Shown: positions 3,864 through 18,872 of the stretch, piece by piece
Numbering within the stretch: the first letter of the stretch is position 1
Layout: the number at the start of each line of letters is the position of its first letter
Assembly (NCBI GenBank): GCA_965215885.1
Contig: CBDCEW010000076.1
Coordinates: 1 to 25,714, forward strand
Direction of reading: 5' to 3'
From: Candidatus Moanibacter sp.
GTDB lineage: Bacteria; Verrucomicrobiota; Verrucomicrobiia; Opitutales; UBA2987
Length of the DNA stretch: 25,714 nucleotides
Notes under the pieces: model-generated
What the model was told of the DNA's origin: nothing
What the model saw: only the letters and a program-made list of their open reading frames with translations
The model's database searches: none
Translations under genes and position numbers: made by a program

Positions 3864-4091
3864 TTGTTAATCCGGAATTCAGAATTACTTAACAATTCTC
3901 TTGCATGCCATTCGATAAACAGCTCTCATCCATCCAAGAAGCCTCTCAATGCAGACACCCCCTTGGGATGGATGAAGAGAGTATTCCTAGTCGAAGACAA
4001 CAGGGATAACGCTGACTTGGTAGAAGACTTCCTTTGTGAAGCTTACGAAGTTTCCTGGTTTGAAGACGGACCAAAGCTGCTCTCCTCACTA

Positions 4092-6008
4092 GACCCCATT
4101 CGAAAAGCCTTTCGAGCGGGCGGTTTAAGGTTCTCCGCCACGGGCGGACCAGCCTATGGCTGGCAGGTTTCGGGTTTTAGGCTGCCGGCGCTGCCGATGA
4201 GCAGGTATTGAGCGGCCATCGGCGTGGCTTGCTGCACAATACGTATATTTGCCGCTGTCTGGAGGCATACTCATCCCGTGGTGCTTTTTTCTCTGAGCTT
4301 CAAAGCGGTCAGATTCAGGCTGCCTGTTCCAGTTCCTCCCCTCGGCGTTTCTTCATCAGTATGATGCGGCAGAAGTTGTAGGCCAGAACCTTCTCGAGCA
4401 GTTCATCGCCTACCGCATCGATGCCGCGGCGGCCGAGTTCGCCAAAGGCAAATCCATCTTTAATCGTGAACATCAGCGACTCCACTGCGGAGCGATCGCG
4501 GCGTGCCTCGCGATACGCCTCGCTCTCCCAGTCCTCGGGGGTGGTCAACTTCTTGCCCTTCGCCCCACTGATACTGATCTGCTTTACCCCCATGCTCAGC
4601 ACCTCCTTGCGTCCCTTCGCCGAAGCATATCCGTCATCGGTGCTGACCAGTTCAGCAATGACACCGGTGCGCTTGATCGAATCGCCGATGGCCGGCGCCA
4701 GCTCAATGGAGTCTGCCGCGTTGCCTTGCGGTACGATCAGGCTGGTGACAAAACCGTTTTCGCTGCGAACCAGTTGTGGCTTGTACCCGATCACTGGATT
4801 GCGGCTGCCCTTCTTGATGTAGGCCGCCGATCCGTCCGAGAGGCTCAGGACCTTCTGTGTGGACGGTAGCTTCTTTTCGTGAAACACCCGATCATGAGCA
4901 TACTCAACAACCCGCTTGGCGTCGGCAATATCGCCCCTGATCTGGCTCAATGCCCGCTCCAGAAGCTCCCGGCGAGTGGGAGGCAGTGAATCCATCGACA
5001 GGCCCTCTTCAAGGTGGCTCAGTTCCCCCGTTAGTGAGTCGGCCGCCTTGCGGCCCCGCTTGAGCAACCGCCGGTAGTGTTTCTTCAGCTTGCCCTTCGA
5101 CTTCGGTTTGCCCGCGGCCAGACAAATCTGAAACTCCAGCTTGTCCATTTCCTCCAGCCAACGCCCAACCCATCCCTTGCGAAAATCCTCCAGCCCGAAG
5201 ACATGCAACTTCTGACCCAAACGATTGGCCCGCATCAAAAGACCGCTCAGAATCTTCCCATCGGTGGGCCAGCAGCTGTTTGCTTTCACCGAGGTGCTGT
5301 CGATCGTCAGCTTCCCGAAATCGTCCCATTGCTCCTGGAGGATAAACCCAATCTGTTTATCAAAGATCAACTCGCGGGTCGTATGGCTGACCAGGTTCAC
5401 GTTCTCCAGAATCGTCGTCACCGCCGGCATTCTCAGTCCCCCGCTCTGCAAAAATCCGTACAAGCTCATCGACTCGCGCACAAACCGCCGTGCCGGTTTC
5501 GTGGTCAACGAACCCAGAAACCCTCGAAGCATCACGAACACGTATACCGCATAAGCCGGCATCCGCGGCCGGCCTGCCCCAAGATTCAATTCAGCAGCCA
5601 GAATATTCTCCTCCTCGATGTCCAGCTCCGGCAGCTCCGCTGTGCGCCCTTCAAAGAACCTGCGATCTTCCAATCGAAGTTTCTTCTTCTCACGTGCATG
5701 GGCGTCCAGATCCTTCTCGATCGCCTCGATGATTTGCGCCGCGAACCCGGCCAATTCTTCAACTTCATCCAGAAAATCACGGAAATCCGTGTCTGGAACC
5801 GGCAGAATGAGGTTGCTAAGGGGCGTCTTATCGCTTTTGTTCTCCTCTGTCGCACATGTTGGCATGTTTAACTCCTTTCTTAATCTTAGGTTGTTAAATA
5901 CTAGCATGTTGCGACACTTTTTATCAAGCCAAAAAATGATTTTTCTCAAGTTTTTCTTGCGCCTTTTGCGCCTCTTTGCGGCCAATCAGTAGCTTTTCGG
6001 ATAAGGTC
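4092..6008 (-). mobile_element. Insertion sequence copy 2, complete, 1917 bp
   Basis: Imperfect TIRs GACCCCATTCGAAAAGC / GACCTTATCCGAAAAGC. Flanked by direct repeat TCACTA at 4086-4091 and 6009-6014 (or 4-bp CACT if the ends are one base longer). Confidence 0.95.
4315..5865 (-). CDS. DDE transposase (IS5/ISNCY-like), second copy
   Basis: Same protein as 45..1595 except K/E and G/S substitutions. Same RBS and start. Confidence 0.9.
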   Translation of the reverse strand: MPTCATEENKSDKTPLSNLILPVPDTDFRDFLDEVEELAGFAAQIIEAIEKDLDAHAREKKKLRLEDRRFFEGRTAELPELDIEEENILAAELNLGAGRPRMPAYAVYVFVMLRGFLGSLTTKPARRFVRESMSLYGFLQSGGLRMPAVTTILENVNLVSHTTRELIFDKQIGFILQEQWDDFGKLTIDSTSVKANSCWPTDGKILSGLLMRANRLGQKLHVFGLEDFRKGWVGRWLEEMDKLEFQICLAAGKPKSKGKLKKHYRRLLKRGRKAADSLTGELSHLEEGLSMDSLPPTRRELLERALSQIRGDIADAKRVVEYAHDRVFHEKKLPSTQKVLSLSDGSAAYIKKGSRNPVIGYKPQLVRSENGFVTSLIVPQGNAADSIELAPAIGDSIKRTGVIAELVSTDDGYASAKGRKEVLSMGVKQISISGAKGKKLTTPEDWESEAYREARRDRSAVESLMFTIKDGFAFGELGRRGIDAVGDELLEKVLAYNFCRIILMKKRRGEELEQAA

Positions 6009-6408
6009 TCACTAGAGGAATCTGCCATAGAGCCACCTGGCCTTTTTCTCCTGGACATCGGCTTGCCGGGAATGGATGGGGTCGAGCTGCTCGGAAAAAT
6101 CAAAGAAATTGATGGATATCAAAACATCCCTAGCATTGCCCTGACGGCTCACGCAATGGTTGGTGACGAGCCGAAATTCCGGGAGGCAGGATTCAATGGC
6201 TACGTGAGCAAACCGATTACTGATGAAGAGACGTTAGTAAATGAGATTGAGAGGCTTTTAGTTTGAAGGTGGCAGCCAGGTTATATGGTGGATGGCGCTT
6301 AAGAGGGACAAGTAATCTATACTCTAATCGCCACATTCCCGCAACTCACCAGCTTCACACCAGCAAGAAATTCGTCGTTTCCTTTGTAAGCTCTCCCTTT
6401 TAAATCCT

Positions 6409-11661: not shown

Positions 11662-11965
11662 TTTATTAACGCCCCGTTCGAATCCGCATTATTGAATGGG
11701 CAACAAGGAGGCCGGGTTCACACCTGATACGAGAACCGTTATGAGTTAGAATGGGACAGGTTGTGCCTTGCGATCTGCATTGATGGAAAATTAGTATTAC
11801 TCTGTCGAATAGGTCTCATAATTTCCTTTAGTAACGGATTTGCATAAGAATACGTTAGGAATGACTCCAAGATAAATTTGGGAATTCGTGGTTTGCAACT
11901 CGACCTTCCTTCCTTGAAACGGCTGAACAGTCTCGAAAGAAAGTCGTTGAACAATTCCCCTACAA

Positions 11966-12129
11966 AAAAGTTATTCAAAAGCAAATACTGTTTCTTCAAA
12001 AATCCGCAAAATCTCACCCCCACCCAACAGATCCGCCTCAAGGAGGTGCTCCAATACGACCCCTACATCTCACCCCCACCCAACAGATCGCGCCTCAAGG
12101 AGGTGCTCCAATACGATCTGAAGAGCGTT
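11966..12129 (+). pseudogene. ISL3-family transposase remnant with an internal tandem duplication
   Basis: KSKYCFFKNPQNLTPTQQIRLKEVLQYDLKSV resembles the ISL3 'LLKxxENLTxxQxxxLxxLL' segment. No start codon or ends seen. Confidence 0.65.
12011..12116 (+). repeat. Tandem duplication of about 49 bp
   Basis: ATCTCACCCCCACCCAACAGATC(G)CGCCTCAAGGAGGTGCTCCAATACGA at 12011-12059 and 12067-12116, separated by CCCCTAC. Confidence 0.95.
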
Positions 12130-12272
12130 TTTAAATGCATTCACCTTTTACCCCATTAAGGGTAGAGAAAGTTCCCATCAGGATTATTATAAAAAAAGTC
12201 CTATTCGCTACAGGTTATATCGCTGGAATTGTGGTCGTGATCAACGATTGAAAGAAATTTGGGGAGATAAGG

Positions 12273-12513: not shown

Positions 12514-14277
12514 TCAAAAATCCATTTCAATACCTATCAGCGGGTCGACAGCCAAATCCTGGATCCGCACCATGCGCGTGTACATGCCGTTGGCCGCAAT
12601 CAATTCGTCGTGGGTTCCGATCTCGGTGATACGGCCCCGATCCAGGACGATGATTCGATCAGCGTTTCGCACGGTGGAGAGGCGGTGCGCGATGACCAGG
12701 GTAGTTCGGTTATGCATCAACCGGGATATGGCCTCCTGGATGAGCAACTCCGTGTGGGTGTCCACTGCCGAGGTGGCCTCATCCAGGATCAGGATGGGGG
12801 CATTCTTGAGCACTGCCCGGGCGATTGACAGGCGCTGTTTCTGACCACCCGAGAGACGCACTCCGCGTTCTCCGATGATGGTATCGTAGCCCTTCGGAAG
12901 CTCCCGTATATATTCCTCGGCATTGGCCGCGCGCGCGGCCTCGAGGACCTCCTCCTCGGTCGCGTCGGGCCGTCCGAAGAGCAGATTCTCTCGTACCGTC
13001 CCGTGGAAGAGAAAGACGTCTTGCGGGACTGAGGAGATGTGGTTCCGCAAGAAGTGCAATGGCAAACAGCGTATGTCGCATCCGCCGATAAGAATCGCGC
13101 CCTTCTGGGGATCATAGTAACGCGGAACCAGGTGGGAGATGGTGGTCTTCCCCGCTCCCGTTGGCCCCACCAGGGCGGCGATCTCACCGACACCCACCTC
13201 GAATTCGACATCATGAAGGACCGGTCCATCGCCGTCATAGGAAAAGCTGAGATTTGATAAACGGAGGTTCCAGTCGATGTGCAAAGGTACTGCCGCATCC
13301 GGTGCATCGACAATATCCGGTTCGATGGCGAGCAGTTCGAAGATGCGTTCCGTGCTGACGGAGGCCTTCTGGAGGACATCATTGATCGTCGCGAGTTGGA
13401 GAAACGGCTGGTAGATATGACCCAGGTAGACGATGAACAGGAACAGATCCGCGACCGAAATCTCCCCATTCAGCGCTCCCGTCCCTCCGCTCCAAATTAC
13501 CAGAATGATTCCCAGACCGCCTGCGCCCTCGATCAATCCCGCGGGAATGAGGGAAATTGCGTTGGCCTCGATCGAACTGTCACGGAAGCGCCGGCTGCGG
13601 GCTTCAATCTGCTCGGCACATTGTGGTTCGCGAACGAAGGATTTGATTACCGAGATACCCGAGAAGTTATCCTGGATCTGGGCTACGACCTCCGCCAGGC
13701 GGTTACGGACGGAACGCCAGATCTTTCGCACCCGGGAGACGTAGCGGAAAACGAGATATGCGGTCAGGGGGATGGGCAGGAGGGTGATCAGGGCCAGTTT
13801 GCTATTGACCGCGAAGAGCACCACCATCATGGCGGCGGGAATGATAAAGGCCAACACGGTCTCCGGGATTCCATGGGCAATGAAGTCCTCCACGGCTTCG
13901 ACGTCATTGACCGAACGCGAGATCAGGTTCCCGGTGCGCTCTCTGTTAAAGAACCGATGCGGCAGGCGCTGGATGTGGCGGTAAACCCGGCCCATCAGGT
14001 CGTGCATCACCTCGTAGGCGGCCACGTGCGAGAAACGGCCGTATCCGTAGCGCGTGATTCCTCTGAAGAAGTATACGCCAATCAGCATCAGGGTGAGACG
14101 GCGGAGGCCCGACGCATCTCCCCCGCCTTCCGTGAGCCACTGGATCAGTTCGCGGATGATTAGGGCCGGCAGCAGGTTGGACGCGGCAAAGAGGAGCCCG
14201 CAGCCAATGGAAAGGAGGATCAGTAGCCGCCGATCGCGGATAATGTCGTAAAACTGTTTTAGACCGAGATTTCCCAT
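12514..14277 (-). CDS. ABC exporter, fused permease and ATP-binding domains (MsbA/MdlAB-like)
   Basis: N-terminal TM domain, Walker A GPTGAGKT, Q-loop VPQD, signature LSGGQKQR, Walker B ILILDEATSAVD, H-loop IAHRLST. Confidence 0.96.
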   Translation of the reverse strand: MGNLGLKQFYDIIRDRRLLILLSIGCGLLFAASNLLPALIIRELIQWLTEGGGDASGLRRLTLMLIGVYFFRGITRYGYGRFSHVAAYEVMHDLMGRVYRHIQRLPHRFFNRERTGNLISRSVNDVEAVEDFIAHGIPETVLAFIIPAAMMVVLFAVNSKLALITLLPIPLTAYLVFRYVSRVRKIWRSVRNRLAEVVAQIQDNFSGISVIKSFVREPQCAEQIEARSRRFRDSSIEANAISLIPAGLIEGAGGLGIILVIWSGGTGALNGEISVADLFLFIVYLGHIYQPFLQLATINDVLQKASVSTERIFELLAIEPDIVDAPDAAVPLHIDWNLRLSNLSFSYDGDGPVLHDVEFEVGVGEIAALVGPTGAGKTTISHLVPRYYDPQKGAILIGGCDIRCLPLHFLRNHISSVPQDVFLFHGTVRENLLFGRPDATEEEVLEAARAANAEEYIRELPKGYDTIIGERGVRLSGGQKQRLSIARAVLKNAPILILDEATSAVDTHTELLIQEAISRLMHNRTTLVIAHRLSTVRNADRIIVLDRGRITEIGTHDELIAANGMYTRMVRIQDLAVDPLIGIEMDF

Positions 14278-14624
14278 ATGATGGGTTTGAATCGTTGAAA
14301 TTATCGAGCTCTGGAGTTTTCGAGCGTATTTTACTCCTTTCGATACGCTTCGGCAATTGTTTTTTCCTGGTATCTGCCAGTTGCATAGGCGGTAATTACT
14401 ATTCGTTGTGGATTTGGCCGTTGTTCGGAGAAAACTGAGGCAGGGGGGAAATGGGGAGCTCGGCTCACTTGAGCTTCGCCGAGCGAATGTAACTTGGTAC
14501 GGTGGCGGGCGGGTCAGAATTAGCCCGAAATTTCAAGAAGGGGGTATCCCTACCTAAGCAATTTTGGTGGCTTTCGATTCTTCAATCATAGTTGGTAGAA
14601 ATGGCGCCGCATAATAAGCACATG

Positions 14625-14636
14625 CAGTCGGACCCC
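14625..14636 (+). repeat. Empty copy of the IS4/MITE target motif, CAGTCGGACCCC
   Basis: First 11 bp are identical to the left flank of the MITE (18438-18448). An inverted partial partner GGGTCAGAAT lies at 14511. Confidence 0.6.
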
Positions 14637-14652
14637 ACCCACCCCGTCTTTT

Positions 14653-16014: not shown

Positions 16015-16248
16015 ATTTGTTTGTAGTTATTTCTTCCTGTAGTCTCTTGCGAATTTGAAGTCGCTGCGCGATTGGGTAACGATGCTGATAATCGGCGAAG
16101 AAGGCTATAGAACTCCTCCTGAATCTCCCTCACCGTCAAGATTGACAGCTGATTCTAATCCACGCGAGGTCAAAACTCAACCCATGCCACTCTGACCCGA
16201 ATGGCGATAAGATAAGCCAAAAATAATTGTAAAAAATATGTAAAAAGC

Positions 16249-16277
16249 TTGTACTATGACCGTTAGTAGGCTAATCT
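16249..16277 (+). promoter_or_regulatory. Putative sigma70 promoter for the IS4 transposase, probably leaderless
   Basis: TTGTAC-N17-TAATCT ends 6 nt before ATG 16284. No Shine-Dalgarno sequence seen. Confidence 0.5.
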
Positions 16278-16283
16278 TGTTGT

Positions 16284-17747
16284 ATGAAAAATATGACAAG
16301 ATTCCTGCCTGGGTTTAATCACATTCTATGCGGTCGCCCGCCTAAGTCGGCCCTGGCACAATTAAAGCAAAAACTGGCTCATCTAAGAGAGTCAACTCTA
16401 TCGGAGTTGTCGGATCTGTTTGATCGGTGGATTCCTCTGGGAGTTTTGCAACCCAAGAGCGAAAAAGAAAACAGCCGGGAACGAGTCTACTCACTCAGAA
16501 CGACCTTCTGGGGCTTTCTGTTCCAGGTGCTCTCCCCGCAGACAGCCTGCCGGGAGGTCGTCAGAAAGGTGCAGAGCTACTGTAGTGAGCGGGAGTTGAA
16601 CCTGCCCAGTTCCTCCACCTCGGCCTATTGCCAGGCACGTCAGCGCATAGGTATAGAGGACTTACAAAAGATCGGTGAAGAGGTCAGCGAGCAGATACAC
16701 AAGGAGGTAAGGCAAGCGCAGCGGTGGAAGGGGCACGAGGTCAGAGTGATAGACGGTACTGGGATCAGTATGCCCGATACCGAGCAGAACCAGAGGGCCT
16801 TTCCCCAACCCGGGGGGCAGAAAGAGGGGTGCGGATTTCCCGTCATGCTTCTGGTGGGCTGTTTCTGTTTGGCCAGCGGGGCCTTGCTGCACTGTGTCGA
16901 GACCACCTTAAAAAACCATGAAAGCGGCATTTTGCGCAAATTCGTTGGGTATTTGAAAAAAGCAGAGGTGGTTCTGTGCGACCGCGGTTATTGCTCTTAT
17001 GCCAATCTGGGGCTGCTTCTAAACCATCAAATGGACGCGGTCATGCGCCTGCACCAAAGGCGCAAATGCGACTTCCGTAGCGGCCAAACACTGGGCCGAT
17101 ACGATCGGCTGGTGACCTGGAAAAAACCGCAGAGACAGCACGCGTTCAGCCCGGAAGAATGGGCTCAATTACCGGCCGAACTGACTCTGCGAATGGTGCG
17201 TTTCTTCGTTCAGCTCAAAGGCTTCCGTACCCGAAAGATCGATCTTGTGACCACCTTTACCGACCCCCTCCAATACACCGTAGAGGATCTGGCCGATCTC
17301 TACTTCCGCCGCTGGTCAGTGGAACTGTTTTTTCGCGACATTAAAACGACTATGAAGATGGAAACGGTACGCTGCCTTACTCCCGAAATGGTGCGTAAGG
17401 AAATCCAGCTGTTCTTTATCGCCTATAATCTCATCCGCGCCCTCATGCAACACCCCGCCACCCTCTATCAGCGTGACCTGCATCGGCTCAGCTTCAAGAG
17501 CACGGTCGACACCGTTCGGCAGTACTGCACCGCTCTGAACGCCACCCGCAAGCAACCTCGAAAGCAACAACGCATCATTGACGAGATGGTTCTGATTATT
17601 GCCGAGGAGACTGTTCCACTACGAGAACACCGCAGCGAACCACGAGCGGTCAAACGAAGACCGAAACCTTACCAATTACTAACGAAGCCGCGAGGGAAAA
17701 TGAAAGTCTCGCGCTCGCGCAGAAACAAAGGCAAAAATCGTCGTTAA
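16284..17747 (+). CDS. IS4 family transposase
   Basis: SAYCQARQR, VIDGT, LCDRGY and the YREK signature YFRRWSVELFFRDIK, plus C-terminal EPRAVKRRPK. Confidence 0.97.
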   Translation: MKNMTRFLPGFNHILCGRPPKSALAQLKQKLAHLRESTLSELSDLFDRWIPLGVLQPKSEKENSRERVYSLRTTFWGFLFQVLSPQTACREVVRKVQSYCSERELNLPSSSTSAYCQARQRIGIEDLQKIGEEVSEQIHKEVRQAQRWKGHEVRVIDGTGISMPDTEQNQRAFPQPGGQKEGCGFPVMLLVGCFCLASGALLHCVETTLKNHESGILRKFVGYLKKAEVVLCDRGYCSYANLGLLLNHQMDAVMRLHQRRKCDFRSGQTLGRYDRLVTWKKPQRQHAFSPEEWAQLPAELTLRMVRFFVQLKGFRTRKIDLVTTFTDPLQYTVEDLADLYFRRWSVELFFRDIKTTMKMETVRCLTPEMVRKEIQLFFIAYNLIRALMQHPATLYQRDLHRLSFKSTVDTVRQYCTALNATRKQPRKQQRIIDEMVLIIAEETVPLREHRSEPRAVKRRPKPYQLLTKPRGKMKVSRSRRNKGKNRR

Positions 17748-17864
17748 TCGGGCTTATCTTAGCGCCATTCCACTCTGACCCTCTATTCTCTCCGCCCTCC
17801 TCGCTTCGTCTGAAATCGCGAGTCGCCGAACAGGCGAGTTGAGTTTATGCCATTGTCGAGGAAC

Positions 17865-18020
17865 TCACTCATTCCTCCACGGGAAGGACTCGATTCGCCG
17901 GGAGCGGTTTTCCAAGGGAAGCGACACCGCGGCCCCCTCCCTCGCACTGGACTCATGGATGGCGAATCCAATTTCAGTGGTGCGGCGGGCGTGCTCGATG
18001 TCATCAATTCCGTCGCCAAC
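17865..18020 (-). pseudogene. Probable orphan C-terminal fragment of a Gfo/Idh/MocA oxidoreductase
   Basis: DDIEHARRTTEIGFAIHESSAREGAAVSLPLENRSRRIESFPW resembles the family's final 'A..E...AI.ES...G..V.LPL' helix-strand. No N-terminal Rossmann domain upstream. Confidence 0.5.
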
Positions 18021-18448
18021 CCGGCGGAGGGTGTAGGGAGTTTTACTCTTCACGAGGAGTTGGGAATAGGAGATAAAATTGCAGAGGGAGCGATTCCAGT
18101 TGTGCTGCAAGCGTTACTTATTTTAAGCGACCACGAACCGCAGTGTGGGATTAACTGTACGGGGGAACGGTACTGAGCGGCGGTCAGAGGGTGTCAGATT
18201 GGAAATTCTTAGATTTTCCTCAGGGAATTATAGGATTTACTGTTTTATCCTCTGCCCGCGTTGATCTGCACTAATTCAGTGAAAAGGCAATGGTTACTTT
18301 CCATTCCCCTGAATTTCTGTCTCTTTCAATATCCCTCTTGATCTTTTCCCAGGCAAATTCCCGAACAGATCCCCCAATCCAGCTCCTTGAGCTCTCGTGG
18401 TGCTATAGCCTCATTGGATTCTCAATCCCTCATTTCGCAGTCGGACCC

Positions 18449-18587
18449 GAATGGCGCTAAGATAAGGGGCAATAACGGTAAATCCTGCCGCGGTCCGTTT
18501 CGGCCGCAAGCGGCCTTCCTACAGCAATTTGTGCAACTCGTAGGAAGCTCGCTCGCGAGCGATACGCCCCTTATCTTAGCGCCATTC
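18449..18587. mobile_element. 139-bp MITE with IS4-type ends
   Basis: Perfect 22-bp TIR GAATGGCGCTAAGATAAGGGGC, whose first 18 nt match the right end of the neighbouring IS4 element. 11-bp flanks CAGTCGGACCC / CAGTCTGACCC (10/11). Confidence 0.93.
18500..18562. repeat. Divergent pair of GTAG-type REP palindromes inside the MITE
   Basis: Minus strand 18500-18522 GTAGGAAGGCCGCTTGCGGCCGA; plus strand 18540-18562 GTAGGAAGCTCGCTCGCGAGCGA. Confidence 0.8.
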
Positions 18588-18872
18588 CAGTCTGACCCCA
18601 TGCCTCCCCGCCATGCCTCCCCGAGATCAGGTGGGTGTCCTGAATCGTGTTTTCCGCCCCAGGCTTCGTGAAACAACGGCCAGATCCTCAACGAATAGCG
18701 ATTACCTCCTATTCAACCTCAGAGGCCCGAAAAGACAATTGCCAAAGGGTCTTGAAAGGACAAAACTGCTCGCGAAAGTTTCATAGGTCGAAAATTCAGA
18801 CGATGCGTATTTGCCATATGGGAAACTCCAATTATTGGTCATTTCGTGTCGGTTCCTAGTCTAGTGTGCTGT

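Follow-up and report, generated by a model that had tools for sequence, protein, structure and literature searches.

We analysed a 25,714-nt stretch of DNA from Candidatus Moanibacter sp. (GCA_965215885.1, contig CBDCEW010000076.1, positions 1-25,714, forward strand; hereafter the window), which carries an insertion sequence (IS) of the IS4 family at 16199-17770, flanked by an 11-bp target duplication. Its transposase probably reads a short target word, GGGTC(A/T)G-NNNN, directly, and the terminal inverted repeats (TIRs) of TIRtrons would hold about 40% of the surviving insertions because they are the best intergenic matches to this word. TIRtrons are TIR-associated tyrosine-transposase elements with the TIR motif GGGGWSAS (Di Nocera et al., 2013, PMC3733652), and have been equated with TnpA-Y1 subclass 2.1 (Quentin et al., 2018, PMC6006769). 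Strict homing of the transposase to an intergenic repeat, as the initial annotation of this DNA had proposed, is not supported, since at least three copies split genes, another has used the end of an unrelated IS, and TIRs make up the share of non-genic sites that the 11-bp preference predicts.

The duplication CACTCTGACCC is exact and stands on both sides of the element (16188-16198 and 17771-17781); the site at its left copy (minus strand, GGGTCAGAGTG) has no counterpart elsewhere in the genome and is not demonstrably a TIRtron end. A miniature inverted-repeat transposable element (MITE) at 18449-18587 is flanked by CAGTCGGACCC (18438-18448) and CAGTCTGACCC (18588-18598), which match the IS target at 9/11 and 10/11 positions (chance of at least 9/11, ~2.6e-4), so that the target common to both elements, as first annotated, is borne out. 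The same annotation saw the IS target as the right arm of a degenerate palindrome (16166-16198), and this did not hold: the stem is only 5 bp long and no better than in shuffled sequences (z = -0.05 and +0.62), the site has no second genomic copy, and the claimed left arm (16166-16177, plus strand) is a chance-level match outside the system.

Genome-wide, 35 IS ends were found (18 left and 17 right), and 10 of the 15 pairs of ends on the same contig are flanked by an exact 11-bp duplication. Flanks are exchanged between copies in two pairs, as after recombination or mis-assembly, and on C101, where the duplication is offset by one base, the left 11-mer was left out of the matrix. All 19 distinct oriented 11-mers are biased, and together they spell GGGTC(A/T)G with four less constrained bases after it (11.7 bits); the copies thus do not show the unrelated duplications that would speak against sequence-specific targeting, and of the 11 bases taken as the shared target the seven adjoining one end are conserved while the remaining four vary. 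The word is polar, since a perfect GGGW on at least one side occurs in 14/19 sites as against 7.1 expected from a symmetric model (0/10000 permutations), and a symmetric palindromic target is rejected on the same ground. It is entered in both orientations (GGG side at the left inverted repeat in 10 cases, at the right in 7, with 3 ties), so that the uniform orientation remarked on earlier is true of the window and not of the genome. The variant GGGACAG is used by 0/19 sites, with 709 GGGACAG vs 765 GGGTCAG words and at least six GGGACAG-type TIRtron ends in the genome. The copy on C31 has landed at an end of an unrelated ISNCY-like element, and this end is among the only 4/122 that read GGGTCTG. 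Among ten reconstructed empty sites, three lie inside long open reading frames (ORFs; C72, C94 and C39), and a single-ended site on C86 is perhaps a fourth genic insertion. The three intragenic sites keep either the GTC-W-GAC core (C72, C94) or the full GGGTCAG (C39), which argues that the middle bases, too, are read by the enzyme.

The same preference is found far beyond this genome. A scan with a 35-sequence alignment yielded 498 relatives, the best 80 of which, together with five further loci, make up 85 loci from many phyla; nearly all have GAATGGC ends. Their 104 unique flanking 11-mers, with no rows dropped and a few evidently misplaced ends included, match GGGWSWS at 7/7 positions in 48 cases (background 0.21%) and at six or more in 83 (background 2.5%). 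The word is polar here as well (a perfect GGGW on one side or both in 64/104, vs 36.7 expected) and again occurs in both orientations (59:45); the outer arms are A-rich (A at -2 to -5, 51-62%) and the inner arms T-rich (T at +14 to +18, 42-56%). In a quick IQ-TREE phylogeny of 53 transposases, taken only from loci that have a long ORF and a single, unambiguous target type, the GGGT/GGGA variant changes 5 times as compared to 14.6 times when shuffled, and groups hosts of different phyla, so that the preference travels with the enzyme. This ties the preference to the enzyme and does not demonstrate co-evolution with TIRtrons. In 11 multi-copy genomes the same target words recur for 73/151 end matches, and one such word is located 89 nt upstream of a Y1 gene and occurs in free inverted pairs too. 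Among 60 related genomes searched, the transposase is present at E<=1e-60 in only three.

At the level of sequence, the IS target word is the published TIRtron tip GGGGWSAS. Several IS sites extend into a longer conserved arm that recurs at 20 places in the genome when up to 4 mismatches are allowed, frequently in inverted pairs, and the pair on C87 encloses a Y1/HUH gene of RAYT type. The genes on C87, C89 and C30 score above the PF01797 cutoff, carry HYH/HFH and HLNP motifs and are flanked by TIRs, in agreement with what defines TIRtrons (a Y1/HUH gene with a Y---NP signature and a C-terminal extension between GGGGWSAS inverted repeats), and such TIRYT genes were labelled subclass 2.1-type from their motifs and length. 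With a partner criterion of 18/24, fixed across sites, 8/19 inner IS ends score as TIRs, vs 10/764 genic and 56/227 intergenic free matching sites; this excess is significant against all free matching sites (66/991; Fisher p 2e-5), and against the intergenic ones alone p is 0.11. At TIR sites the register is fixed, the duplication starting at the GGG of the GGGG-WCAG tip. Eight subclass-2.1-type TIRYT 3' ends have a visible GGGTCAG-type TIR, and an IS4-type end occupies four of them. One further site, C27, is found in a nested repeat that carries GGGGTCA motifs. The connection with an intergenic repeat that had been drawn from the window therefore stands insofar as a repeat is involved, which is the TIR of TIRtrons and neither a repetitive extragenic palindrome (REP) nor a local palindrome.

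Some further observations concern these repeats. The nested intergenic repeat that holds the IS4 copy on C27 occurs 21 times in the genome; it is ~130 nt long and contains the GGGGTCA motif three times, as well as hairpin inserts that vary. At C30:14560-14597 and C37:55841-55876, both of them TIRYT 3' ends, a short duplication of the target and the first 8 bases of the inverted repeat lies ahead of the IS4-type end, a possible footprint of repeated insertion or excision. An ISL3-like element (family assigned by inspection; C105:290532-292211) lies between two inverted GGGGTCAGGCTTATTATT repeats, i.e., within a TIR dimer, and in the window an unoccupied TIR-tip-like relic, GCAGTCGGACCCC, is found just past the stop of a PhyH gene (~14625-14637).

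In order to separate direct reading of the word from attraction to TIRs, all genomic sites were weighted by one of two position weight matrices (PWMs), the first built from the 11 sites outside TIRs and the second from 52 sites of relatives. The predicted TIR share among non-genic sites was 0.32 or 0.47, respectively, and 8/16 were observed (p 0.18 and 0.81), in line with direct reading of the word by the transposase. The predicted genic share was 69% as compared to 3/19 observed (p ~2e-6). The idea of a safe haven thus fits the outcome, but the data do not establish dedicated homing to the repeat: about 40% of the sites lie in TIRs, not 100% as in REP-homing ISs, and at least 3/10 reconstructable sites lie inside ORFs.

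Several points weigh against direct reading of the word. The test by which TIRs add nothing has low power (16 sites), both PWMs were built from sites that might themselves be TIR relics, the gene calls come from a custom hexamer gene finder (77% coding), and the evidence consists of surviving insertions only. A symmetric DDE dimer would not usually have a perfectly polar target, and TIR-assisted capture, too, would be expected to give polarity. The tree of transposases is quick and not final, and the IS site of the window itself is not recognisable as a TIR. In the 11 other genomes none of 40 inner ends has an inverted partner within 1.5 kb, a result that weakens strict homing too, and only 4/40 have a Y1 gene within 300 nt, so that the TIR link in those genomes rests largely on the motif. 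The larger set of relatives speaks for the TIR link: at 6/85 loci an IS end has a class-2 Y1 gene no more than 300 nt away, and only one more locus has such a hit in the remaining ~245 kb of flank. In seven of the 11 genomes GGG(T/A)CAG stands 78-115 nt upstream of 12/48 Y1 genes (48 of 57 were examined, nine C-terminal fragments being left out and IS200-type genes kept), and an IS4-type end lies in the scanned flank of three.

One alternative is that the transposase is recruited to TIRtron ends by a bound or nicking TIRYT or by a longer TIR structure, the non-TIR sites being relics or errors. It would account for the polar target and its fixed register with the TIR tip, for the occupation of half of the eight TIRYT 3' ends and for the depletion of genic insertions, as well as for the correspondence between the two target variants of the clade (GGGTCAG and GGGACAG) and two TIR variants upstream of Y1 genes. 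We nevertheless regard it as rather unlikely: 11/19 sites fail the TIR criteria (among them C27, in its related nested repeat), insertions are found within genes and on an unrelated IS end, the GGGACAG TIRtrons of the same genome are unused, and the TIR share is no higher than expected from the sequence. A loose symmetric GGG-N5-CCC preference, from which selection for harmless matches at TIR ends has made the polar consensus and the TIR link, has a precedent in IS231A, with its target GGGNNNNNCCC and 11-bp duplication (PMC2577343, Table 1), and the strong genic depletion would agree with it. It is improbable, as the intragenic sites keep the core or the full word, the IS copies are very young (~99% identical), and the T/A variant at position 4 tracks the enzyme. 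A target that forms one arm of a stem-loop or palindrome and is recognised as a hairpin, as by REP-targeting ISs, is very hard to maintain, in spite of some self-complementary TIR dimers (PMC3733652) and of free inverted TIR pairs in this and other genomes: the claimed palindrome does not fold better than chance, a nearby partner is missing at most sites, and the MITE carries the GTAG REP units as cargo and does not use them as its target.

If the transposase does read the word directly, insertion might proceed as follows, judging from what is known of IS4 and Tn5. A transposase dimer would pair the two inverted repeats, cut the element out and attack the target with an 11-bp stagger; for capture, one full GGGW half and a central C-W-G could be sufficient, aided by the A-rich outer and T-rich inner arms. 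The duplication would rebuild the TIR tip on both sides and spare the stop codon of the TIRYT, so that a TIR site could be hit again. The shortage of genic copies might be due to purifying selection or to the arm preference, and the MITE would borrow the enzyme of the IS or of an earlier relative. A more far-reaching idea is that this cross-phylum IS4 clade is a specialised hyperparasite of TIRtrons, its word co-evolved with the GGGTCAG and GGGACAG variants of the TIRs and its capture aided by a TIRYT-bound or nicked end. We consider this doubtful; if true, it would mean that a DDE transposase piggybacks on an HUH element. We know of no demonstration that TIRtrons, as HUH elements, are themselves mobile.

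The IS of the window (plus strand) is 1572 bp long and has ~19 genomic copies, most of them >98.5% identical. Its 20-bp inverted repeats (left, 16199-16218, plus strand; right, 17751-17770, minus strand) enclose one gene, and the left one differs from the other copies by a single substitution. The gene (16284-17747, plus strand) encodes a DDE transposase of 487 aa with the triad D157/D233/E347, whose spacers of 75 and 113 are within the D(60-110)D(100-150)E range of the IS4 family, and with a Y(2)R(3)E(6)K motif, YFRRWSVELFFRDIK, at residues 340-354 (Y340-R343-E347-K354). It scores 205 bits against the IS4 equivalog NF033592 (cutoff 115). One ORF, terminal inverted repeats and a duplication of about one helix turn place the element by its sequence in the IS4 family, and its GAATGG ends (-AATR), size and 11-bp duplication in subgroup IS4 (PMC2266710, Table 1). 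In an AlphaFold model of the transposase (pLDDT 83), the closest solved fold is that of the Tn5 transposase (E 8e-10), at a modest TM of ~0.4 that does not identify the target-reading residues. No target-bound structure of IS4/Tn5 type was among the matches of the fold search, and a sequence search of solved structures gave 0 matches. A guide RNA was rejected, because the noncoding DNA, 85 nt ahead of the gene and 23 nt behind it, leaves no room for one and there is no Rfam match; with a DDE enzyme in place of a DEDD recombinase, membership in the RNA-guided IS110/IS1111 group was rejected as well. Four copies (C31, C72, C87 and C101) share a transposase frame split near an A-run, either a shared frameshift or a long-read error.

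Many relatives of this element are longer: 17/60 paired relatives exceed 1800 bp, most of them with a divergent small ORF, and in L001, L002, L003, L007, L013, L025-L027, L037, L044, L051 and L073 (1850-1960 bp) a divergent ORF of ~110 aa lies upstream of the transposase. The three small ORFs tested are DUF6788 above cutoff. An accessory protein as targeting factor was rejected, as long and short relatives have similar targets and the IS of the window has no small ORF; the DUF6788-type ORF is a conserved accessory gene inside IS4 elements that is unneeded for the target preference.

Downstream of the IS, the MITE has landed in an internally deleted, non-autonomous TIRtron of ~260 bp (18189-18448, minus strand), which consists of two TIRs and a broken TIRYT remnant. 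The first TIR (18189-18215, plus strand), at the 3' end of the remnant, is degenerate and 85% identical to the TIR on C92 over 40 nt; the remnant (18197-18366, minus strand) is the C-terminal part of a TIRYT (Y1 HUH) gene (tblastn E 5e-6 to the TIRYT on C87); and the second TIR (18424-18448, minus strand) matches reference TIRs at 20/24 positions, its outer 11 bp (18438-18448) being the left target copy of the MITE. The MITE itself (139 bp) has perfect 22-bp terminal repeats, the first 18 bp of which are identical to the IS ends. It lacks an ORF, is multicopy and has a duplication equal in length to that of the IS, all in keeping with a MITE of this element. Its right target copy (18588-18598) has one mismatch to the left one. 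As its closest genomic copy is only 94% identical, the MITE burst is older than that of the IS, and the single mismatch in the duplication would fit this greater age. Two inverted GTAG-type REP-like units (18499-18522, minus strand; 18540-18562, plus strand) lie within the MITE and not in its flanks, and the REP as target was rejected for this reason. The genome holds 27 paired short elements with IS4-type ends, of which 12 have at most one mismatch in their 11-bp flanks, 21 carry two inverted GTAG REP-like units and three pass the TIR criterion. Copies of the two units are frequently found within 130 nt of an IS4-type end (27/69 and 29/47, genome-wide), so that this REPIN-like doublet may be spread here by an IS4 enzyme rather than by a RAYT. 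A second MITE lineage (C26, C97, C98 and others) has GAATGGCACTAACTTAAG ends and is often found at GGGTCAAG-type targets, which suggests a sister enzyme with a shifted preference; C3 carries a 39%-identical IS4 transposase.

The window holds further repeats. An ISNCY-like transposase gene, which scores below the NF033593 cutoff, is present twice (45-1715 and 4315-5985), its second copy splitting a response-regulator-like ORF (3864-4211 / 5976-6266; named by inspection); the 122 genomic copies of the ISNCY-like end are mostly followed by a CTAG-type target. An inverted intergenic repeat (14270-14425 and 18672-18825, 74% identical) is also present on C95 and C32, and a fragment of an ISL3-like transposase (11878-12159) carries an internal 26-bp duplication.

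A preference that is kept across enzymes 35-60% identical to that of the window, with a natural one-base switch (GGGT vs GGGA) along the enzyme tree, provides a ready comparative set for how IS4/Tn5-type enzymes choose their targets. It also explains why nests of mobile DNA recur at TGACCCC motifs, and connects a common IS clade with TIRtrons, on which there is hardly any work. To our knowledge, DDE transposases with a tight, protein-read target of ~12 bits are uncommon.

IS231A, which prefers the terminal repeats of Tn4430, resembles the IS of the window in its 11-bp duplication, in the GGG edge of its target and in using a short word to enter the ends of another mobile element. It differs in belonging to another subgroup (IS231), with CAT ends and a Tn3-family host transposon, whereas the IS of the window has a polar word, read middle bases and a Y1/HUH TIRtron as host. 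Subgroup IS4, with its 1400-1650 bp, -AATR ends, YREK motif and duplications of 10-13 bp, matches in size, ends, motif and duplication length, and some of its members show a "spectacular apparent insertion specificity" in the target arms (De Palmenaer et al., 2008, PMC2266710). The text of that paper contains no GGG(T/A)CAG consensus and no link to TIRtrons, and its Fig. 3 could show the consensus for a named member. The TIRtron papers describe, in their main texts, the target motif GGGGWSAS and not this IS (the string "IS4" is absent from the main text of PMC3733652 and PMC6006769), and genes of the kind they describe, with ends of this type, occur in this genome together with deleted derivatives, one of which lies in the window. 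A literature search found no paper tying IS4 elements to TIRtron ends; it lay outside most subscription journals, ISfinder and Fig. 3 and the supplements of PMC2266710, which may record the consensus.

Among REP-targeting ISs, ISRm22 has 100% of its copies in REPs, at the axis of the palindrome and with a 6-bp repeat (Tobes and Pareja, 2006, PMC1525189). Like it, the IS of the window is an IS4-family member at a fixed position in an intergenic repeat, with recombined flanks between copies; unlike it, it is found in TIRs at only ~40% of sites, at their tip, and needs no hairpin. Of the features of type 1 of REP-targeting ISs as given by these authors, it shows the fixed register, and its repeat is a TIR tip rather than a REP, at 8/19 sites. 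IS4321/IS5075, of the IS1111 group, target the terminal repeats of Tn21 (PMC11187229) and thus also enter another mobile element at its terminal inverted repeats, but through an RNA-guided DEDD recombinase, whereas the IS of the window has a DDE enzyme and no room for a guide RNA. The landing of ISs in the ends of other elements is therefore a known principle, of which the insertion of IS4 elements at TIRtron ends represents a new instance.

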